From the NCBI GenBank assembly GCA_041736305.1, contig JBGSTX010000311.1, positions 1-12,872 of the forward strand: a stretch of 12,872 nucleotides of DNA. Reading direction: 5' to 3'. The translations under genes were made by a program, and so were the position numbers. This document shows positions 1 through 9,222 of the stretch, one piece after another (position 1 is the stretch's first letter; every line of letters begins with the position of its first letter). This DNA is from Oligoflexus sp. (GTDB lineage: Bacteria > Bdellovibrionota_B > Oligoflexia > Oligoflexales > Oligoflexaceae). The notes beneath the pieces are model-generated. The model made no database searches. It was given only the letters and a program-made list of their open reading frames with translations, and was not told the DNA's origin.

Positions 1-1086
1 GAAACCTTCGACTCCCGTTTTGCTGTGATACGCTCTCTCGGTCGGCAAGCAGCGGGACTTGCCACGTCTCTTGTAGTCGAAAATTATCCCTACACCAAGG
101 TCCTCGAGCCTGGCTTAACGGCAGTCGACGGAGCGATCGCTCATTTCTACTCGCAGAAGCACCACTTTCGCATTGATGAGCTCAATCTCGATCCGGAAGT
201 TACGAGTCTTGTCGAAGGCACGTCGTTTACTGATACTAGGTTCAAGCTCCTTAAGACCTCCAGCTACGACTACGCTTCGGGTGGCATTATCAGTACCTTC
301 GGCTTTCTTCGCCGCTTCGACAAGCAGCGTACCCGTGCGAATGAGCTTTATAAGCGCCTCCTCTGCCGTGAGTTCACGGCCGACCTGCCGAGGGTTTTCC
401 CACAGGATCCAGGTAACCTGCGCATAGCTCCAGGCTGTACCAATTGCCACTCGGTACTAGACCCTCTCGCTGACTTTTTTCTCGCCTGGGGCGAAGGAGC
501 TTCTCTCTATAGCGGAGGCCAGGCCCCCGTCAGTACCTTTTTTAATGGCAAGTCGGGAAGTAGCGTCGCTGAGCTTGCCGAAATCATTCGAGGCGATCAG
601 GCCTTCGCAACCTGCACTGTGCAGAACGTCTGGTACTGGCTGGTGGGAAGGAAGTTTTTCAAAGATGAAGAAGCTCTGCGCACAGCCCTTACCCAGTACT
701 TCGTTACGAGCAACTTTAGCTTTCGCGAGTTGGTCTATGCGATATCAACTCACTCTGTCTTTCTTGAAGGAAGTCGCGCCGATGGTCTCACCTCGGAGCC
801 TCTCGAAGCGCCACCTCTAGGTACTGCACCTGTAGAAGCGCCTCTGCAGTGCGATCGTCCCTACACTTTTGCTGCAGATGTTGCACCCCGTCTGAACCTT
901 TGCTCGAATTGCCACTATGCTGGTGGCGAGGGTCGTCAAGATCTTACGAGCGAATCGCAGTGGAGGGTTTGGGGTGTTACGGCTGTAAAAATGATGGGCT
1001 CCGGGCAGATGCCTCCAGGGCCCTCTCGTTCCGAAACCGTAGATTTAAAGAATGCAGTCCGTTGTTGGATGGAGCAAAACCCATGA
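1..1086 (+). CDS. DUF1588/DUF1585-like protein with two CxxCH heme c motifs and a C-terminal cytochrome c-like domain (5'-truncated by the window edge)
   Basis: Frame 1 is open from base 1 (ETFDSRFAVIRSLG...), so the GTG at 25 is probably internal. 'RANELYKRLLC...PGCTNCHSVLDPLA' resembles DUF1588 (CxxCH at 436-450). 'VAELAEII...FATCTVQNVWYWLVGR...FRELVYAI' resembles DUF1585. After a Pro-rich linker comes 'YTFAADVAPRLNLCSNCH...GQMPP' (CxxCH at 901-915, candidate axial Met at 1009-1011). Family assignments are by motif recognition, not HMM search. Confidence 0.75.
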   Translation, partial: ETFDSRFAVIRSLGRQAAGLATSLVVENYPYTKVLEPGLTAVDGAIAHFYSQKHHFRIDELNLDPEVTSLVEGTSFTDTRFKLLKTSSYDYASGGIISTFGFLRRFDKQRTRANELYKRLLCREFTADLPRVFPQDPGNLRIAPGCTNCHSVLDPLADFFLAWGEGASLYSGGQAPVSTFFNGKSGSSVAELAEIIRGDQAFATCTVQNVWYWLVGRKFFKDEEALRTALTQYFVTSNFSFRELVYAISTHSVFLEGSRADGLTSEPLEAPPLGTAPVEAPLQCDRPYTFAADVAPRLNLCSNCHYAGGEGRQDLTSESQWRVWGVTAVKMMGSGQMPPGPSRSETVDLKNAVRCWMEQNP

Positions 1087-2462
1087 AAATAGATCCAAAG
1101 CTTCTCAAGAATAATCTTCTTTATGGCAGCGGTCACGCCCATGTCTGCCACCCAAGTCAAATGATTGAGCTCAATCGGCGCGAGTTATTTAAGACAGGAG
1201 TCAGCCTCAGTGGCTTTGCTCTCGCATCCGGTCTATTGAAGGCCGGCGAAGCCCAGGCGCAGACTCATGCCTATCCGCCTCAGCGACGCCTCATTTGGAT
1301 CAATATGAGCGGCGGCTGGGATGTCCTGGAGGTCACAGACCCTAAGCCCGCTTCTACTCCCGGCATCGATATGATGTATGAGTGGGGTCTAGCACAAACC
1401 TTGACTGGTACTTCAGGTACTGATCGAATAGGACGTTGGATGGGCCGTCTTGCAGCTCACGGTCAGGAAGTTCTCGTCGTGCGTGGGCTCGGAATGGGAA
1501 CCACCTCCCACATGGCTGGCGCTGTGTATATGGATACAGGAATCTTAAGCAACTCAGGTACCGTCAACTCAGCCTCGATACCGGCTATCGTCGCCTCAGA
1601 AAGTGAAGCCACGATTCCCATCATTCAACTCAACGGTGGCAGTGAACCAAAAATCGATCGCGGTCTCTTGAGCCCAGTCTCGACCGTGCGCGCCCAAAAT
1701 CTGGAGCTTTATCGCTCTATGTATCCTCAGACTGACGAAGAACTTGCGCAAAAACTCATGATTCTCGATCATCTCAAAAATTCCGTCGATCGAGTTCAAA
1801 GTAAGAGCGGAAGCTACGATCGGCTGAGTGCTGTAGGTACTGCAGAACAAAAGATTCGGATTCAATTTCAGAACGACGTGGGGGCGAAACTAGCTCTGAC
1901 CGACGCGGACCGTGCCCCGTTCACAATCAATCCCCCAAGGACTATAAATAACGGTCAGCGTGATGCCTTTGCACTCTCCCTTAAACTGTTGAAAAACAAT
2001 TTGGTTACCTGTCTAAACTTAGGTGTCGGTGGCTTTGATACGCATGCGAACCAGGAGCGTCAACTACAGGGAACGCTCGATAACTTCGACTATCTCTTGG
2101 CGACCTTAGTCACCGAACTCAAGGCCGTAAACCAGCTCGACAACACGTTGATCGTCGTATATTCTGATTTTGGACGCACCCCAAAAATTAATAACAGCGC
2201 TGGGCGCGATCATTGGCCGGTTGGTGGAGCTCTCATGGTGGGTGGTGGAATCGCAGGAGGGCGCTTCGTCGGCGTCACCGACAGTAACCTCCGCTCCGTG
2301 AATATCAATGCCAACACAGGTGAAGCGGATCCTGCAGGCATCGATTTCAACCCTACGCATCTGGGGGGGAGCGTGCTAGCTCTGACTCTAGGTAGCGCCT
2401 ATCTCCCCTATCGTACATATCTTGAAGCCCTGCCAGCCCTCACTCGCCTAAAGGGGACATGA
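1083..2462 (+). CDS. DUF1501 family protein (alkaline phosphatase/sulfatase-like motifs) with a twin-arginine signal peptide
   Basis: The ATG at 1083 overlaps the upstream TGA (ATGA) and has GGAG 8 nt upstream; there is an alternative ATG at 1161. Tat-like 'NRRELFK' is followed by a hydrophobic stretch and AQA. Motifs typical of DUF1501: 'LIWINMSGGWD', 'TTSH', 'GGFDTHANQ', 'LDNTLIVVYSDFGRTPKIN...GRDHW', 'GGGIAGG'. Confidence 0.88.
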   Translation: MKIDPKLLKNNLLYGSGHAHVCHPSQMIELNRRELFKTGVSLSGFALASGLLKAGEAQAQTHAYPPQRRLIWINMSGGWDVLEVTDPKPASTPGIDMMYEWGLAQTLTGTSGTDRIGRWMGRLAAHGQEVLVVRGLGMGTTSHMAGAVYMDTGILSNSGTVNSASIPAIVASESEATIPIIQLNGGSEPKIDRGLLSPVSTVRAQNLELYRSMYPQTDEELAQKLMILDHLKNSVDRVQSKSGSYDRLSAVGTAEQKIRIQFQNDVGAKLALTDADRAPFTINPPRTINNGQRDAFALSLKLLKNNLVTCLNLGVGGFDTHANQERQLQGTLDNFDYLLATLVTELKAVNQLDNTLIVVYSDFGRTPKINNSAGRDHWPVGGALMVGGGIAGGRFVGVTDSNLRSVNINANTGEADPAGIDFNPTHLGGSVLALTLGSAYLPYRTYLEALPALTRLKGT

Positions 2463-2497
2463 AAAGCGATGTGGGCTGAAGCTGAGTTAGGAATAAT

Positions 2498-3646
2498 ATG
2501 AGAAGGATCGCAAAGCTGCTGCTTGGGACTCTGGCCTTCAGATCGCTTTCGGCCCAGGCAGATGTCCTCGAAGAGAGAAACTGGCAAGTTATTTCCGAAC
2601 AAGTACGTAATCCTTTTCAATTAAATCCTGCCGCGCTCGCCACCTCAGAGACGGTCGTCAGCCTCATGCAGCTGACGGGGACGGAAGAAGCTAAGTACAT
2701 CTTCAATCCAAACAACAACGCGGCCAAAGTCGAGCACAAGACTAAAGTCAAAGACATAGCTCTCGGAACTCAGTATCCTCTAGGTGGCGCTGCTGTGGGA
2801 TTCGTTGTCGATCAGTACGACCGTGTAGTCAAGGCTAAGCATGAAAACCGGGGCAGTGCTGTAGAAGAAAACTTCAGTCTCCGCGAATACAAGATGAACT
2901 TCGCCATCGATCTTATTTCCGAGCTGCAGGCCGCCTTTAGTTTTCGCTACCAGACATTAGAATCCGATCTATTTGGCTCACATTTCCTTAGTAATGAAGA
3001 CAAAACCCACTACGAAGGTAATCGCTCAGGATATGCAATCGGTGGTCTCTACCAACTGAAGAGTATGGGCATAGGCGTTTACACGGCTCGGCCTCTCCGG
3101 GGTAAGGCAACCATCGAAGGCGAGCAAAAGATCATCTCCGATCCCGGCTACGATGGATTGGACTTCGGCCTCGATCTCAACGAGCGCATCAAGCTTAAGC
3201 TCAGTGCCCTGCGTTGGACCTATAAACGAGATGATCGGGACGACGATTCAACGAGTCCCGTCGATCAGCGCGGTATTCTCTTGCGTGGACTTGAAATCGA
3301 TCAGTATTATCGCAAAACCCAGGCCCTGGGGTTGGGGGGTGAATTTCTGCTCACTCCTGTCGTCGCCATCAAAGCGAGTTGGACGATGCAAAAAGGAGTG
3401 TTTCTCTTCGATTCCAAAGCCTTGCCCGGGCAAAAAGAAAACCTGGAGACATCCATGAACTACGGCGACCTCAAGGGAGGTGTCAGTGTTCGCAATCGGG
3501 AATTTATGGTCGAATTAATGTTCAGCCGTTATCAGCGCGAGAAGGATACGATAAACGTCGGGCGCGGCGATGTGGGTCTCAATCAGCTAGGCTCTTACGA
3601 AGCTTCCCGCTACGGCGTCCTGCTCAATCTCGGAGCTGCTTTCTGA
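2498..3646 (+). CDS. Putative outer-membrane beta-barrel protein (FadL/PorV-like N-terminal NPA motif)
   Basis: AGGA RBS upstream. Sec signal peptide (MRRIAKLLLGTLAFRSLSAQA). 'LNPAAL' near the mature N-terminus (NPA at 2624-2632). Many alternating amphipathic strands. C-terminal 'YGVLLNLGAAF' ends in Phe, matching a BAM beta-signal. Confidence 0.72.
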   Translation: MRRIAKLLLGTLAFRSLSAQADVLEERNWQVISEQVRNPFQLNPAALATSETVVSLMQLTGTEEAKYIFNPNNNAAKVEHKTKVKDIALGTQYPLGGAAVGFVVDQYDRVVKAKHENRGSAVEENFSLREYKMNFAIDLISELQAAFSFRYQTLESDLFGSHFLSNEDKTHYEGNRSGYAIGGLYQLKSMGIGVYTARPLRGKATIEGEQKIISDPGYDGLDFGLDLNERIKLKLSALRWTYKRDDRDDDSTSPVDQRGILLRGLEIDQYYRKTQALGLGGEFLLTPVVAIKASWTMQKGVFLFDSKALPGQKENLETSMNYGDLKGGVSVRNREFMVELMFSRYQREKDTINVGRGDVGLNQLGSYEASRYGVLLNLGAAF

Positions 3647-3657
3647 TATCTTGAGAA

Positions 3658-5337
3658 TTAAAACTGGCTCCTGTCATTTCTTTGGTTGGCACTGGGATAG
3701 GTCGCCAAGACCTTCTGAAGTTCGGGAATGCCCGATTCTGCTTCAACCTTGCGCGTTAAGGTTACTTTAGGAAGGAACACCAAAGGTACAGCTGGGACAT
3801 CGCTCAAAAACTGGTGTTCAAGCCGGCTGAACAGTCTCAGCAGATGGCTGGCATCAGGCTCTCTCATCATTGTTTCAAGCAAGCGATTGACGGAAGTTTG
3901 TTCCCAGCCGCTGAAGTTAGAACCTATGTAACTGTTGTCTGAATTAGGGATGGCCAGCCCGTGAAAGAGATGAATGGGTGGCGAAAGTGGTGGCAATCGC
4001 CAGCGCATGCAGGCGGCGTCTTTGAAGCGGAGGTGCCCTAAAGTCTGTCGGAGAAAATCGGCTTCAGGAAGCGTTTCTACGGTCAAAGCTATGCCGACAT
4101 TCTCTAGGTCCTCAGCTACGGGTTTGGCCCAGCCGTTTTTTAGCCGTTCCTCGGTGCAGCTCAGACTGATCGTGAGTTTCTCCCCTCGCTCGTTATAGCG
4201 CCAGCCATCTTCCCGCTTCTTCCAATTCGCCGCGTCCAAGAGCTGCTCGGACAGCTCTTTTTGAAAAGCCAGAGGAATCTTTTCTCCGGTTCGACGGCTT
4301 TGTTCGCTATAAAAGAGCCCGTCGGTAGTCTGAGCTCCACTCCGAAAGTATTCCTTATTAATCCTCGAACGATCTATTGCATGAAAAAGGGCCTGACGCA
4401 TCGAAGGATTGACGAGGGTGGGGCTTCTCATGTTGAGCACGAGCAGTTCTAAAGTCTCACCTTCACTCAGACCGATTTCGTAGCGATTATTTAGGTCGGG
4501 GATACCTTCATTGAGGGTCCGCAACTGATCCCAGCTCAGTTGTCCTGAGAAGGTTTGGTCTACTTCGCTTTTTCGCAACGCATCGGCAAGATGCGGGAGT
4601 TTCGCAAAGAAACGAACGTCGAGCTTTTGGCTGGGGCTCACTTCCCACTCATTTTCTCTATTTGGTTCTAAATTTAGTCTGTCTGCTGTCGCATCACTTA
4701 CCCGATAGGAACCATAATAGAGGCCCGGATCGCGCAAGAGTCGCGCGTATTCTTTGTCCTCAGGCTTAAGCTGCAGGAGCTTCTTGAGCACATCTTCCTT
4801 GTGTTTGGGCAGAAGGCTGATGGCAAAAATCTGTGCCGCATCCGCTCGGCGATGCTGCAACACGAGCGTCAGTTTATTGTCCTGCTCGGTGTTCATCTCG
4901 ATTCTTTGGATAGGAAGGATGGGATGCTGCCCCTTAGGGTAATCCCCACGGGCCATGAATTCGAGCGTAAACTTCACATCTTCGCGGGTAAGAGCTCGGC
5001 CATCGCCCCACGAGAGATTTTTCTTGAGAACAAGCGACGTGATCTGACTGCTGCTCTTTCCTTTGCTCTTTCTTATAAGGGATTCAGGTGCTTCTTTGCA
5101 GAGATTGCAGGCGATGCGTCCTGAATGTTGCAGATAGAGGATGGGAGGGTTTACGAGCATATTGATGCCATGAGCTTCCCCCGCATATTGCTTGAGCGGG
5201 ACGACGTCTTCAAGCGAGCCGAGGCTGCCAATAGTAAAGGGCCGCGGTCCCGGGGCAGCGGAAGCGGCGAAAGCCGAAGAAAAAGCTACGATCAGGGCTG
5301 TCACTATACTTCTTGCTTTAAGAAAGCGGCGCGTCAT
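3658..5337 (-). CDS. ABC transporter solute-binding protein, family 5 (peptide/nickel; OppA/DppA/AppA-like)
   Basis: Signal peptide. Family 5 features: 'LKKNLSWGDGRALTREDVKFT', 'YGSYRV', 'LVLNMRSPTLVNPSMRQALFHAIDR', 'LLDAANWKKREDGWRYNERGEKL', 'GSNFSGW...VNRLL', 'DVPAVPL'. Confidence 0.88.
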   Translation of the reverse strand: MTRRFLKARSIVTALIVAFSSAFAASAAPGPRPFTIGSLGSLEDVVPLKQYAGEAHGINMLVNPPILYLQHSGRIACNLCKEAPESLIRKSKGKSSSQITSLVLKKNLSWGDGRALTREDVKFTLEFMARGDYPKGQHPILPIQRIEMNTEQDNKLTLVLQHRRADAAQIFAISLLPKHKEDVLKKLLQLKPEDKEYARLLRDPGLYYGSYRVSDATADRLNLEPNRENEWEVSPSQKLDVRFFAKLPHLADALRKSEVDQTFSGQLSWDQLRTLNEGIPDLNNRYEIGLSEGETLELLVLNMRSPTLVNPSMRQALFHAIDRSRINKEYFRSGAQTTDGLFYSEQSRRTGEKIPLAFQKELSEQLLDAANWKKREDGWRYNERGEKLTISLSCTEERLKNGWAKPVAEDLENVGIALTVETLPEADFLRQTLGHLRFKDAACMRWRLPPLSPPIHLFHGLAIPNSDNSYIGSNFSGWEQTSVNRLLETMMREPDASHLLRLFSRLEHQFLSDVPAVPLVFLPKVTLTRKVEAESGIPELQKVLATYPSANQRNDRSQF

Positions 5338-5474
5338 CTAGTTTTAACCCCCACTAGGCATCGGAATATCTTAATGGAAGGGAAGCCTGCCGCCAATGGC
5401 AATTGGTCTAGGCCAAATTGTTGGTGCTTTCATAAGACAGGAGAGACTTCGCTCTTTATTTCAATGATTGCGGC

Positions 5475-5510
5475 CTGAAGCCTAAGAGAAAGCAGGAGCC
5501 TTGGCTTCAG
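5475..5510. promoter_or_regulatory. Inverted repeat in the divergent intergenic region (possible operator or RNA hairpin)
   Basis: CTGAAGCC (5475-5482) and GGCTTCAG (5503-5510) form a perfect 8-bp inverted repeat with a 20-nt spacer, extendable inward by AAG/CTT with a one-base bulge. Function is inferred only. Confidence 0.3.
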
Positions 5511-5566
5511 AAAGCGGCGGTTTTGCCGAAGAGCCTGAGGAGCAGTCAAGCTAATGAGGAGCGTTC

Positions 5567-7951
5567 ATGAAACGGAATCCTGGACAGTGGTTACACAGTC
5601 CACCTATCAGCCTACGATGGATTATCTTTATCGTGGGATTTTGGGTTAGCGTGTTCATGCTCATTAGTTTTTCTAAGGTTTCCTATCAGGCAGAGTCGCG
5701 GGTAGAGGCACCCTTACTCTACGCCATTCGTGATAGGGTAGGACTAAGTCCCGCGCTTGATCCCCACCTGAAGATCTATGGCTTTGACGACAAGACTGTC
5801 TCGACCTTACGCCGCGCTCGACTAAGCTATAAAGAGTGGGCTGAGTTGATTGAAAGTTTGGATAGCCGCCGACCCAAGGTTATCATCATCGATGCGCTTT
5901 TCTCGGTTGTCCAGAGCGTCTATGACGAGAGTGATGTATCGCATCAAGAGATGGTTGAGCGCATTAGCCGACTGAATACTCCGGTAGTAGTCGGTGCCTA
6001 CGCTATTCCTGGAAAGCTGCCCGACCGTGTACCTCTCGATGAAACCGATCCTTCGCAAGATCTCACGAAATACATTCACAATTACAACAGCCATACTCTT
6101 TCACCGAAGGAACAAGCTTCACAGCTTACTCTAGCCGATTTTGTCGGTAATAGCGTGTACGGTCCGGAGCCGGATGTGCGCGCTGCCTTTAAAAGAATTG
6201 GCCATATTCTCTATGGACAGCGCGAAGGTAGGTTCTATCCTTTTCTTCGGCTAAGCGACACGCGAGGCTTGCCTTACCTGATGTTGCGAGCTTTTGATGA
6301 TGTTGTATTCCGTCAGGGACATCTTTTTGCGGGAGGAGCAGAAATTCCCGTTTCCAGTGATGGTAGCGCGTTTATCAACTTCAGCAACGTCAAAGAATTT
6401 TCGAAAAACGTTCTTTCTATGCGGAGTTTGCTCTCGCCGAATACCCGGGATGCGGCTCTTCAGGATGTGGCCGCAGGCGACTACGTTTACATAATCCCTA
6501 TGCACTTTACTGGGAACACCGATTTCAAACCGACCCCCATCGGACTTATTCCAGGTGCCTATACTCATCTCGCGGTCCTCAACAGCATATTAAAAAAGCA
6601 GCCGCTTCGACCCATAGAGGCTGCTCCTTTACTTATCGTCCTTTTTGCATCTGCTGCAGCTCTGCTAGCTTGGTGGCTATCTCCTGTTCCTCTGTTTTTT
6701 AGCTTAATTACGCTCTTCAGCCTTTGGACGGGCGTTTGGATAGGAGCCTTCATCACGATAGGTTGGGTTTTCCCCTGGTTGCTGCCAAACCTCACTCTCC
6801 TCGGCGTCGGCTTCTCTCTTCTCATGCATAGGACTCGTGAGTCTGAGCGCAAATCCCAGTACGTGCGTCAAGCATTTGAGGGAGCCGTGCAGCCCCAAGT
6901 CCTCACGAAGCTGCAGGCTCATCCCGAAAAACTTTCGTTTGAGGCACGCGAGCGTGTCGTCAGCGTGATGTTCGTCGACATCGTCGGATTTTCGATGATG
7001 GTTGAAAACCAGCTGCCACGATTAGCCTTCGAAAGCTTGCGCGAACTCATCGAAAGCATTACGGCCATCGTTCACGAATACGGTGGAATGGTCAACAAAA
7101 CTCTAGGCGACGGATTACTCTGCTTTTTCGGCTATTCCTTCGAAGAAGACCGGGAACGTTCCGATCATGCGGAGATGGCTTTGCTCGCGGCTGCTAAGAT
7201 TCAAAAAAGTAACGTTCCACGAATGATCAGAGCCGCCAGAAACCGCGAACCGGTCTTTCCTTTACGCATCGGCATCAATACAGCTGCTGTCTTTATGGGC
7301 AACCTCGGCTCGGGTCAGCGCCTTGACTTCACCGTTATCGGTAATGGAGTTAACTTCGCAAAACGACTCGAGGGTGCTTGCATGCCTCATTCCATCTTAG
7401 TGGGCCCGACTACTAAGGAGCTTGTCGAACCGCTGGGCGGTCTGGACCGCGCTAAGCGGCGTATGATCGCTATCAAGCATCACAGTGAAATGGTCGAAGC
7501 TTGGGAGTACGACCCTTTTGCCCAAGATCCAGAGCTTCGCGTTCAAGCTGAAGAAGCTTATCGTTCGACCACCTATCTTACGCGGATTGAACGTCGTTGG
7601 ACCATTGCGAATCCAGGCAACATCACTTTCACATCCGCTTTAGGTGAATCGAGTCTCGTCAATTTTTCAGCCACTGGTATGAGCCTGGTTATGAAAAATT
7701 TGGTTTCACGTGGTACTAAGTTGGAAGTTCAGCTCGATTCATTGGATAGCTCGCTGGGCAAGCAGCTCTCAGCTTTCGGCTTACAGAAGTTTCAAGTTGA
7801 GGTACGCTGGGTGCAGAACCACGAAAACGGTTATCTGCACGGAGTCCGTTATCTGGATCTCGACACGCGGCAAACCGACCTCATCACGGACCTTTTATGT
7901 CAATTCGGACTAGAAAAGCGCGACGGATCTGGGTCGAGGGAAGCCTCTTAG
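5567..7951 (+). CDS. Membrane-bound CHASE2 sensor - class III adenylate cyclase - PilZ domain fusion protein
   Basis: GAGGAG RBS 5 nt upstream. N-terminal TM helix, then CHASE2 hallmarks ('GFDDKT', 'WAELIESL...PKVIIIDALFS', 'DFKPTPIGLIPGAYTHLAVLNSIL') and three TM helices. Cyclase motifs 'VMFVDIVGFS', 'NKTLGDG', 'LRIGINT', 'GNLGS...LDFTVIGNGVNFAKRLE'. C-terminal PilZ motifs RIERR (7583-7597), NFSATG (7661-7678), 'VEVRWV' and 'HGVRY'. Confidence 0.9.
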   Translation: MKRNPGQWLHSPPISLRWIIFIVGFWVSVFMLISFSKVSYQAESRVEAPLLYAIRDRVGLSPALDPHLKIYGFDDKTVSTLRRARLSYKEWAELIESLDSRRPKVIIIDALFSVVQSVYDESDVSHQEMVERISRLNTPVVVGAYAIPGKLPDRVPLDETDPSQDLTKYIHNYNSHTLSPKEQASQLTLADFVGNSVYGPEPDVRAAFKRIGHILYGQREGRFYPFLRLSDTRGLPYLMLRAFDDVVFRQGHLFAGGAEIPVSSDGSAFINFSNVKEFSKNVLSMRSLLSPNTRDAALQDVAAGDYVYIIPMHFTGNTDFKPTPIGLIPGAYTHLAVLNSILKKQPLRPIEAAPLLIVLFASAAALLAWWLSPVPLFFSLITLFSLWTGVWIGAFITIGWVFPWLLPNLTLLGVGFSLLMHRTRESERKSQYVRQAFEGAVQPQVLTKLQAHPEKLSFEARERVVSVMFVDIVGFSMMVENQLPRLAFESLRELIESITAIVHEYGGMVNKTLGDGLLCFFGYSFEEDRERSDHAEMALLAAAKIQKSNVPRMIRAARNREPVFPLRIGINTAAVFMGNLGSGQRLDFTVIGNGVNFAKRLEGACMPHSILVGPTTKELVEPLGGLDRAKRRMIAIKHHSEMVEAWEYDPFAQDPELRVQAEEAYRSTTYLTRIERRWTIANPGNITFTSALGESSLVNFSATGMSLVMKNLVSRGTKLEVQLDSLDSSLGKQLSAFGLQKFQVEVRWVQNHENGYLHGVRYLDLDTRQTDLITDLLCQFGLEKRDGSGSREAS

Positions 7952-9222
7952 CCGGCCTCCTGGTTTCTGATGGATTGGGCCTTTTTGCAGATGTTTTGAT
8001 GGCCTGCCCCGGTCTACTCATGGCCGAGCATTTGCCGATCGCTCGGCGGAACGGAAATCCTAAACGTTCCGACCTGCAACTGTTTTCCTATCAAGGCGGT
8101 AGTGCACCCTGGATTCCTTTAGCTCTCCAGCTCGATCCTCTCGACAAAGAGGGGAGTCTGCTTTTTCCAGATGATAAAGAATGGCTTTCTAAAGCGCTCG
8201 ACCCACGCGATCGCCTGAGCTTCGCTATCGATGGCTTCGGTAAACGCTTTGATGCTAAGTCGCCAGCCCCCTGTGCCCATACCCATTGGATAGAACTCGA
8301 AGAGCACGGACTTTATGCCTATCTCCTCGACTGCAACAAGGGAAGTGCGAGGACTTTTGAAAGCCCAGTTCTCCATGATGAAGCGCAACGCACTGTCACC
8401 TCGCCTTACTATAAATTTCATTATAGCGAAAGGAATCACCTAGTCTTCGATGAGATTCAGATCAACATGAAGGGTACGACAGATTTTTCTGCTGTCGCCG
8501 GTAAGTCTGACTTGCTTATCCTAGCGGATGTTAAAAATTTCTTTACGATGATTTTCGATGCGGAAAATTTTGATGCGCGGATAGTCCGGAAACGCAACGG
8601 GCCTCTTGGCCTCATGGGGGGCATGGAATTCTACTTAAAGATCATGGCTTTTCGCATCGAACTCGCGTTGATGCCGGAAGTCAACTTTTTCAATAATGCT
8701 CTCTTCATGCCCATGACCATGTTCTTGCCTATCGATGCGAAAAAATATCTGCATCGCGGCAGTGGTGTATATTACACCTGGGAAAGTAGTCCAGAGACGA
8801 TATGGCTGTTCGATGAAAGCAATATTGGTGAGCTCGACCTTTCGACGATAGATCCCGATTTTGAGGGAGAATCAGCCAAGCCATCGCCCGCTCACTGTAA
8901 TCAAGATCGCTGTCGCTTCAGCCTGGTGGGCAAGGTCAAAGGACGACGCTTTGTGATGGATTTTATCATTAGCCGTCAGGCAGCCGACTTAGGATTTTTC
9001 CCGCGTCTGATCAAAGACGTCGCTTCGATTGAGAAGAAGCTAGGGCGCTCAGTCAGCCGTTTTGAAAAGCAAAAAAGAATGGGCATCTATTTCGAATCCG
9101 CACGTCTTCCCAAAGGCACTCACGCCTGGGATTTTTGGATCTATTTTCCAGAGAAAGGGCTAGAGTGCGAGCACACGTTCAGTGTGCAAAACGTCAACCT
9201 TGTGAAGTCGAGTCCTCCATGA
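7897..9222 (+). CDS. Hypothetical exported protein (start uncertain; alternative ATG at 7999)
   Basis: 441-aa ORF. The basic then hydrophobic N-terminus looks signal-like. It overlaps the cyclase 3' end by 55 nt and its stop overlaps the next ATG. Composition is beta-rich and aromatic. No family recognised. Confidence 0.75.
   Translation: MSIRTRKARRIWVEGSLLAGLLVSDGLGLFADVLMACPGLLMAEHLPIARRNGNPKRSDLQLFSYQGGSAPWIPLALQLDPLDKEGSLLFPDDKEWLSKALDPRDRLSFAIDGFGKRFDAKSPAPCAHTHWIELEEHGLYAYLLDCNKGSARTFESPVLHDEAQRTVTSPYYKFHYSERNHLVFDEIQINMKGTTDFSAVAGKSDLLILADVKNFFTMIFDAENFDARIVRKRNGPLGLMGGMEFYLKIMAFRIELALMPEVNFFNNALFMPMTMFLPIDAKKYLHRGSGVYYTWESSPETIWLFDESNIGELDLSTIDPDFEGESAKPSPAHCNQDRCRFSLVGKVKGRRFVMDFIISRQAADLGFFPRLIKDVASIEKKLGRSVSRFEKQKRMGIYFESARLPKGTHAWDFWIYFPEKGLECEHTFSVQNVNLVKSSPP

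Follow-up and report, generated by a model that had tools for sequence, protein, structure and literature searches.

The stretch of Oligoflexus sp. DNA analyzed here (12,872 nucleotides (nt); assembly GCA_041736305.1, contig JBGSTX010000311.1), referred to in its entirety as the window, contains a gene for a 794-amino-acid (aa) protein, P0001, in which a CHASE2 sensor domain, a class III nucleotidyl cyclase domain and a C-terminal PilZ domain are combined. The gene is the sole long open frame at positions 5567..7951 of the forward strand in the list of open reading frames (ORFs) of the window. A preliminary description of this DNA had proposed that this single polypeptide integrates a periplasmic signal and the level of cyclic di-GMP (c-di-GMP) into the production of cyclic AMP (cAMP). 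The gene and its features, numbered by window position, are the following.

5556..5561, forward strand: Shine-Dalgarno sequence GAGGAG, 5 nt 5' of the P0001 ATG, read from the sequence
5567..7951, forward strand: gene for the CHASE2/class III cyclase/PilZ protein P0001 (794 aa), stop codon at 7949-7951
5615..5674, forward strand: N-terminal hydrophobic segment, the first membrane span, residues ~17-36, from Kyte-Doolittle hydropathy
5768..6658, forward strand: CHASE2 extracytoplasmic sensor domain, residues 68-364 (PF05226)
6623..6823, forward strand: hydrophobic block, residues ~353-419, with room for three spans, from Kyte-Doolittle hydropathy
6824..6952, forward strand: juxtamembrane linker (residues 420-462), which is conserved across the family with the consensus ...IRxALEGxVxPxxLxxL...
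6953..7474, forward strand: catalytic domain of the class III nucleotidyl cyclase, at residues 463-636 (Pfam Guanylate_cyc)
6977-6979, 7097-7099 and 7109-7111, forward strand: codons of the key cyclase residues D471, K511 and D515
7331-7333, 7352-7354 and 7364-7366, forward strand: codons of the key cyclase residues T589, N596 and R600
7529..7585, forward strand: single predicted helix, residues 655-673, leading from the cyclase fold to RxxxR (helix 16-34 of the AlphaFold2 (AF2) model of the 640-794 fragment)
7583..7909, forward strand: PilZ domain, residues ~673-781, with six beta strands plus two helices, a short inserted one and a C-terminal one at 767-781 (Pfam, AF2 model, Foldseek)
7583..7597, forward strand: RxxxR motif RIERR (R673, R677), followed by W-T-I and so fitting RxxxRhxh, from the sequence
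7661..7678, forward strand: [D/N]hSxxG motif NFSATG, residues 699-704, with F as the h residue, from the sequence

The start codon of P0001 is sound because the ribosome-binding sequence stands at a distance of 5 nt and the homologs are alignable from residue 1 onward. Pfam assigns all three domains above the curated cut-offs: CHASE2 (E 2.3e-15, 57.3 bits versus a cut-off of 26.3), Guanylate_cyc (E 8.4e-18, 65.1 bits versus 21.9) and PilZ (PF07238; residues 685-777, E 4e-7, 30.7 bits versus 22.5). The hydropathy profile agrees with one transmembrane (TM) span before CHASE2 and several after it. The domain order given in the preliminary description, TM-CHASE2-3TM followed by cyclase and PilZ, is thus borne out, and all the motifs that it quoted were found in place when their positions were recomputed from the sequence. 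An NCBIfam search with P0001 returned nothing but one match far below threshold. The linker at residues 420-462 seems to resemble the cyclase transducer element found in class III enzymes.

The catalytic domain of P0001 contains the motifs FVDIVGF (D471), NKTLGDG (K511, D515), DFTVIG (T589) and NFAKR (N596, R600), which together supply the two metal-binding Asp residues, the Lys and Thr that select the substrate and the transition-state Asn and Arg, with none of the six missing. D471, D515, N596 and R600 are unchanged in all 39 close homologs, where the six residues as a set are invariant or almost so. In a wider alignment, made up of the window protein and 81 ORF pieces taken from 79 loci, the hexad D-K/R-D-T/S-N-R is intact in each of the 80 rows that cover the cyclase. 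By sequence, the nearest solved catalytic domains are those of Pseudomonas aeruginosa CyaB (3r5g, E 8.6e-19) and Spirulina CyaC (1wc0/1wc1), both of which are biochemically proven adenylate cyclases. K511, T589 and N596..R600 line up with the motifs DKFVGD, D(Y/F)T.IG and N(L/I)A.RL of these enzymes, and the metal-binding residues D471 and D515 are aligned with their counterparts as well, in agreement with the earlier claim of a complete adenylate-type catalytic set. The combination of Lys and Thr, with Thr replacing Asp, is the mark of subclass IIIb adenylate cyclases; guanylate cyclases carry a substrate pair of the Glu/Cys type, which is not present in the cyclase domain of P0001. Because the Lys/Thr pair is of the IIIb adenylate type, cAMP is the likely product predicted for this protein. 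A conserved IKHH..VEAWEYDPF stretch immediately beyond the Pfam envelope (extending to residue ~652, nt 7522) probably represents the last strands of the cyclase fold, judging from where class III cyclase domains usually end; if so, the enzyme and the PilZ motif are set apart by no more than one short helix.

The two motifs of the C-terminal domain conform to the refined RxxxRhxh and [D/N]hSxxG definitions that are given, along with the layout of the PilZ fold, in the available text of Galperin and Chou (10.1101/814665), and their spacing is canonical, with N699 located 21 residues past R677. The AF2 model of residues 640-794, built from a 37-row alignment, has a mean predicted local distance difference test score (pLDDT) of 87.4 and consists of a helix, six strands, an inserted helix and a C-terminal helix, a predicted layout that matches the canonical PilZ domain as described in the same text (10.1101/814665). 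A Foldseek search of the PDB with this model yielded 20 matches at E ≤ 0.001. Among the matches listed at this level, all are PilZ structures or PilZ-containing proteins, mostly complexes with c-di-GMP, with a probability of 1.00; the top ones include Alg44 (4rt0/4rt1), entry 4xrn, YcgR (5y6g), BcsA (4p00/5ej1) and MotI (5vx6), and MapZ, VCA0042, MrkH and PlzA come just below it. The assignment of the C-terminal domain to the PilZ fold, which the preliminary description had left to structural modeling, withstood this check, the best PDB matches being c-di-GMP-bound PilZ domains.

By contrast with the fold, the motifs by themselves are weak evidence: when the C-terminal 155 aa were shuffled 200000 times with their composition kept, the pair (R...R, 15-35 residues, [DN].S..G) arose by chance in 1504 cases (0.75%). 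In the real P0001, it is present only once. It is therefore the profile match, the fold and the conservation that carry the case for PilZ. The residue preceding RxxxR in P0001 is Thr, not Arg (residues 672-677, nt 7580-7597). As a lead only, the residue at this position may sway the binding of one c-di-GMP molecule versus an intercalated pair; the structure of the VCA0042 L135R variant (3kyg) is among the fold matches of the tail.

P0001 belongs to a large and old family that, by label, comes mostly from Bdellovibrionota. A scan of species-level genomes, with one genome per species, identified 195 relatives, the best 80 of which were kept as the 79 loci mentioned above. According to the record labels, 55 of the 79 loci belong to Bdellovibrionota (Oligoflexia, Bdellovibrionia); the remaining ones mostly carry generic metagenome-bin labels, and such rows interleave with Oligoflexales on the tree. 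Among the best 80 of the 195 relatives, at least 14 of the 60 isolates possess multiple loci, and three of these isolates have three. In one locus (L038), family members are arranged in tandem on the same contig, at 1-2115 and 3068-5608. A word-indexed protein search retrieved 39 full-length relatives, 24 of them with a precomputed PilZ match; the public names of the relatives, among them NCBI records of Oligoflexus tunisiensis and Pseudobacteriovorax antillogorgiicola, are generic (for example, 'adenylate/guanylate cyclase domain-containing protein'), and the three Pfam domains are already precomputed for them. The tail alone matched 337 protein clusters at 50% identity (E ≤ 0.001), and among the best 150 of these, 84 are 700-850 aa long, nearly all of which match at the C-terminus.

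The family is present in the cultured Oligoflexus tunisiensis Shr3 (P0008, L003) and also in records of Pseudobacteriovorax antillogorgiicola and Bdellovibrio sp. HCB337 (a complete genome, L075). When the HCB337 copy was used as the query, no match was named B. bacteriovorus, which gives no basis for assigning the architecture to bd0081, bd1116, bd2640 or bd3072, the genes named in the available text of PMC6717892. We constructed a tree with FastTree from the CHASE2-to-cyclase columns only, leaving out PilZ (72 rows, with 10 truncated rows omitted). This tree consists of two deep clades, each with a support value of 100, and members with intact motifs dominate both, indicating that the cyclase-PilZ fusion is older than the split between the clades. 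The preliminary description had stated that in CHASE2 cyclases the cyclase domain is usually the last one, which agrees with the more distant CHASE2+cyclase matches (P0040-P0042, P0044-P0047, P0055, P0061, P0069 and P0074), which are without PilZ.

Of the 76 PilZ domains in the window and the 79 loci, 54 retain the two motifs intact, with both RxxxR arginines present in 64 and [D/N]hSxxG in 63. Six more alignment rows are without a PilZ domain, which reflects truncation, a split frame or true absence. Similarly, both motifs are intact in 122 of the best 150 representative clusters. At the level of the profile, 52 of the 81 locus ORF pieces reach the Pfam cut-off for PilZ or exceed it, and 67 match at E ≤ 0.01. 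On the tree, the motifs must have switched between the intact and the non-intact state at least 11 times. The putative binding site, as judged by these motifs, is mostly retained and has repeatedly decayed.

The cyclase and PilZ domains also occur together outside the CHASE2 context. We scanned with Pfam 50 matches of odd length from the representative-cluster search and found both domains in 33 of them. In P0156 and P0245, CHASE2 before the cyclase-PilZ part is replaced by 7TMR-DISM_7TM, and in P0089, P0136, P0141, P0174 and P0176, the same part is preceded by N-terminal regions of ~170 aa without a Pfam match. Given that varied sensors precede the same cassette, the cyclase, the helix and PilZ appear to form a conserved unit in front of which sensors are swapped. 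This modularity fits a role of PilZ as a putative regulator of the cyclase and not of CHASE2. P0189 and P0209 are also listed with cyclase-PilZ behind 7TMR-DISM_7TM. Among the scanned matches, two contain a second PilZ-like stretch, and those of ~325 aa are fragments that begin within the cyclase domain. In addition, ~120-200 extra residues without a Pfam match follow PilZ in L029 (5989-8976), P0100 (980 aa) and P0114 (901 aa).

We lean, with some reserve, toward the interpretation of P0001 as a receptor adenylate cyclase whose catalysis is modulated by c-di-GMP bound to the PilZ domain. Under this proposal, P0001 would be a homodimeric, inner-membrane class IIIb receptor adenylate cyclase that uses ATP and receives two inputs. 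A periplasmic cue would be conveyed from CHASE2 through the three spans and the conserved juxtamembrane linker to the catalytic domain, and cytoplasmic c-di-GMP would be sensed by PilZ, which is predicted to sit on a helix of ~20 residues that leaves the last strand of the cyclase and ends in RxxxR. The ligand would be held by RxxxR on one side and the [D/N]hSxxG face of the barrel on the other, as in PilZ proteins with an interdomain arginine motif. When another domain precedes PilZ, this motif is located in the linker between the two and becomes re-ordered upon c-di-GMP binding, as described in the available text of 10.1101/814665. Binding would likewise re-order the linker of P0001 and shift the barrel relative to the cyclase dimer, which would alter how the two active sites at the dimer interface are shaped and, with it, the rate of cAMP synthesis; as the linker is predicted to be a single helix leaving the cyclase fold, c-di-GMP binding should move the barrel and alter activity. 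All the parts of the preliminary interpretation that lend themselves to computation were borne out; as a whole it is partly supported, c-di-GMP binding and gating, in whichever direction, being what we infer.

Several observations weigh against this proposal. The motif pair is imperfect in 22 of the 76 domains, with RxxxR only in 10, [DN]xSxxG only in 9 and neither in 3. An ortholog in the same locus (L009, 5992-8364) has lost both motifs, and another (L011, 5983-7980, 666 aa) has lost the PilZ domain itself, with no separate PilZ gene after the cyclase; P0034 and P0035 are likewise without the domain. The cyclase residues are intact in all four proteins, and PilZ/c-di-GMP control would therefore be dispensable in some lineages. 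The TM-scores of the Foldseek matches are moderate (0.57-0.64, normalized to the target), and a sequence profile of 75 C-terminal domains, compared with the PDB at E ≤ 0.01, matched no PilZ chain, just spurious protein A repeats, which makes this profile useless for residue-level comparison with the solved complexes. Furthermore, the Pfam PilZ alignment of P0001 begins at profile position 15, leaving RxxxR uncovered, whereas those of the homologs begin at position 2-3, at the RxxxR residue. A gene for a 395-aa protein with cyclic nucleotide-binding (cNMP_binding) and EAL domains, located divergently upstream of a family member, counts in favor of the proposal as genomic context but is confined to 2 of the 79 loci (L068, 4542-5726, and L072, 4650-5834, both on the reverse strand); these count as a single lineage because they are 86% identical to each other. 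Finally, no enzyme that makes c-di-GMP was seen within the 12.9-kb window, so that the use of c-di-GMP by the host is assumed from the phylum.

A competing explanation that we regard as unlikely, while giving it some weight, is that PilZ binds c-di-GMP without gating catalysis and instead steers the cyclase to a location or a partner, such as the cell pole, a pilus or flagellar component or a signaling protein, resulting in local cAMP. Known PilZ proteins often work by binding a partner, the fold matches of the tail include YcgR and MapZ in complex with CheR1 (5xly), and the present analysis reveals nothing that would bring the barrel into contact with the cyclase domain. However, the barrel is tethered to the cyclase by a single short helix in the model, and the cassette moves as a unit behind varied sensors, which is better compatible with an intramolecular role.

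It is also rather doubtful that the PilZ domain of P0001 no longer binds c-di-GMP and serves as a structural, dimerization or protein-interaction module, as in the xanthomonad non-binders. PilZ domains that do not bind c-di-GMP exist, according to the available text of 10.1101/814665, and the imperfect motifs in 22 of the 76 relatives are in line with such a loss, but both motifs of P0001 itself are complete, the hydrophobic positions included, and the 54 intact pairs spread across both deep clades argue for selection on the binding site. A cyclase product other than cAMP, either cGMP or a pyrimidine cyclic nucleotide, which would abolish the link to cAMP, seems improbable: sequence cannot prove nucleotide specificity, and there are uncharacterized cyclase-like enzymes whose product is cCMP or cUMP (PMC10118264, available text), but the Lys/Thr pair of P0001 is aligned with that of CyaB and CyaC, which are deposited in the PDB as adenylate cyclases, and the Glu/Cys pair of the guanylate type is absent. 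That the fusion is an artifact of assembly or gene calling, which joined separate cyclase and PilZ genes, is refuted, with next to no probability left, by the same unbroken ORF, which recurs across dozens of assemblies made independently of one another. Bdellovibrio sp. HCB337, with its complete chromosome (L075), and Oligoflexus tunisiensis Shr3, with a 7.57-Mb contig (L003), are among them.

The receptor adenylate cyclase proposed here can be compared with several known systems. CyaB (3r5g) and CyaC (1wc0) resemble P0001 in the Lys/Thr pair and in the metal-binding and transition-state residues but differ in having other sensor modules and no C-terminal PilZ; they are regulated by bicarbonate and by their N-terminal domains. 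BcsA and Alg44, like P0001, carry a canonical PilZ attached to an enzyme system of the membrane, have their RxxxR within the linker and could be the best model, by analogy, for how the tail of P0001 works; they control polysaccharide synthesis, however, not nucleotide cyclization, and share only 13-19% identity with the tail in the fold alignments. The receptor design of P0001 is shared by CyaD1, CyaD2 and CyaK of Sinorhizobium meliloti, CHASE2 adenylate/guanylate cyclases in which perception requires the envelope (outer-membrane) protein NsrA (PMC13001267, available text). They share with P0001 the CHASE2 sensor, the membrane spans and the class III output, which in their case produces cAMP when a signal arrives from outside. 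The comparison is by description only, and in the available text they are described solely as CHASE2 cyclases, with PilZ unmentioned.

The cAMP and c-di-GMP systems are joined in one protein also in Bd1971 of Bdellovibrio bacteriovorus, a member of the same phylum, which combines cNMP-binding and EAL domains and functions as a cAMP-activated c-di-GMP phosphodiesterase (PMC6717892, available text). As described there, Bd1971 runs in the opposite direction, with cAMP controlling the breakdown of c-di-GMP, and its domains are unrelated to those of P0001. The protein encoded next to the family member in L068 and L072 has the Bd1971-type architecture. A tentative extension, less probable than not in our estimate, is that c-di-GMP-gated cyclases and Bd1971-type phosphodiesterases constitute a reciprocal two-messenger feedback circuit across Bdellovibrionota, in which c-di-GMP would set cAMP synthesis, cAMP would set c-di-GMP breakdown and each paralog would bring its own periplasmic cue via CHASE2 or another sensor. 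If c-di-GMP activates the cyclase, pairing with a Bd1971-type enzyme would produce negative feedback on c-di-GMP; if it inhibits the cyclase, the outcome would be mutual reinforcement. Such a circuit, if real, would include the first case of direct, post-translational control of cAMP synthesis by c-di-GMP.

The novelty claimed in the preliminary description stood with respect to the literature, in which no paper on this fusion was found, but the protein is not singular, being a member of a large family that is already in the databases with precomputed domains. Full-text literature, largely outside subscription journals, yielded no paper on a fusion of PilZ with an adenylate cyclase, and the available text of reviews of cAMP and c-di-GMP signaling does not mention one. 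The CHASE2-cyclase-PilZ architecture is visible in public databases yet unnamed. Among the reported connections between the two messengers are a transcriptional one, in which c-di-GMP/FleQ acts on cyaA in P. putida (cited in the available text of PMC11139211), and a cAMP-dependent diguanylate cyclase in Leptospira, which acts in the opposite direction (cited in the available text of PMC12943098). A cyclase that reads c-di-GMP, if confirmed, would provide a fast, protein-level link in the missing direction, from c-di-GMP to cAMP, and would be a new enzyme class among the few activities controlled by PilZ. Because the family is present in a cultured strain, the idea is open to standard binding and activity assays.

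The window locus shares its gene order with Oligoflexus and genomes related to it, as follows: DUF1585-like, DUF1501, an uncharacterized gene, a divergent gene for a family-5 solute-binding protein, the cyclase, a 441-aa protein and, on the opposite strand, Fe/Mn superoxide dismutase. The immediate neighbors of the cyclase gene are the following.

3658..5337, reverse strand: family-5 solute-binding protein, divergent from the cyclase and adjoining it in related loci
7897..9222, forward strand: downstream gene for P0082 (441 aa), lipoprotein-like, overlapping the 3' end of the cyclase gene by 55 nt

The gene for P0082 is probably co-transcribed with the cyclase gene. It is found 3' of the cyclase in 17 loci (L001-L004, L007-L012, L014, L019, L023, L027, L029, L035 and L076), and in the closest relatives, its start overlaps the cyclase 3' end by ~46-55 nt. 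The protein carries a signal sequence at its N-terminus, and its invariant Cys37-Pro38 stands in a lipobox-like 'ACPG[LF]L' context; it has no relative in Pfam, NCBIfam or the PDB, and its named relatives are all hypothetical. The solute-binding protein was matched in 20 of the 79 loci, adjoining the cyclase in the syntenic ones, with more than 40% identity in the 8 closest; there are no transporter genes in the window. The conserved envelope-protein neighbors of the window gene parallel the need of the S. meliloti cyclases for NsrA, as the latter is described in the available text of PMC13001267. By this analogy, one might speculate that P0082 and the orphan solute-binding protein act as envelope co-sensors for CHASE2.

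Nearest-neighbor Pfam scans covered 54 of 68 ORFs on the upstream side and as many of 68 on the downstream side; the omitted rows were window-syntenic loci with neighbors already identified. Among the nearest ORFs scanned, no neighbors with GGDEF, EAL, HD-GYP or cNMP-binding domains were detected beyond those in L068 and L072. In the window, an Rfam search at gathering thresholds returned nothing, hence no c-di-GMP riboswitch, and promoter and terminator scans remained at chance level. The ORF at 5125..5478 on the forward strand (117 aa) lies opposite the solute-binding gene, has no Pfam match and no relatives in any locus and is probably not a gene. In L061, a 7TMR-DISM histidine kinase-receiver-cyclase hybrid (2-3553, reverse strand) adjoins the family member and ends at the contig edge. 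At the 5' end of the window, the DUF1585-like (PSD2) ORF (1-1086) and the DUF1501 ORF (849-2462), both on the forward strand and syntenic in 7 loci, overlap by 238 nt as listed; the true start of the DUF1501 gene is probably later than the listed one.

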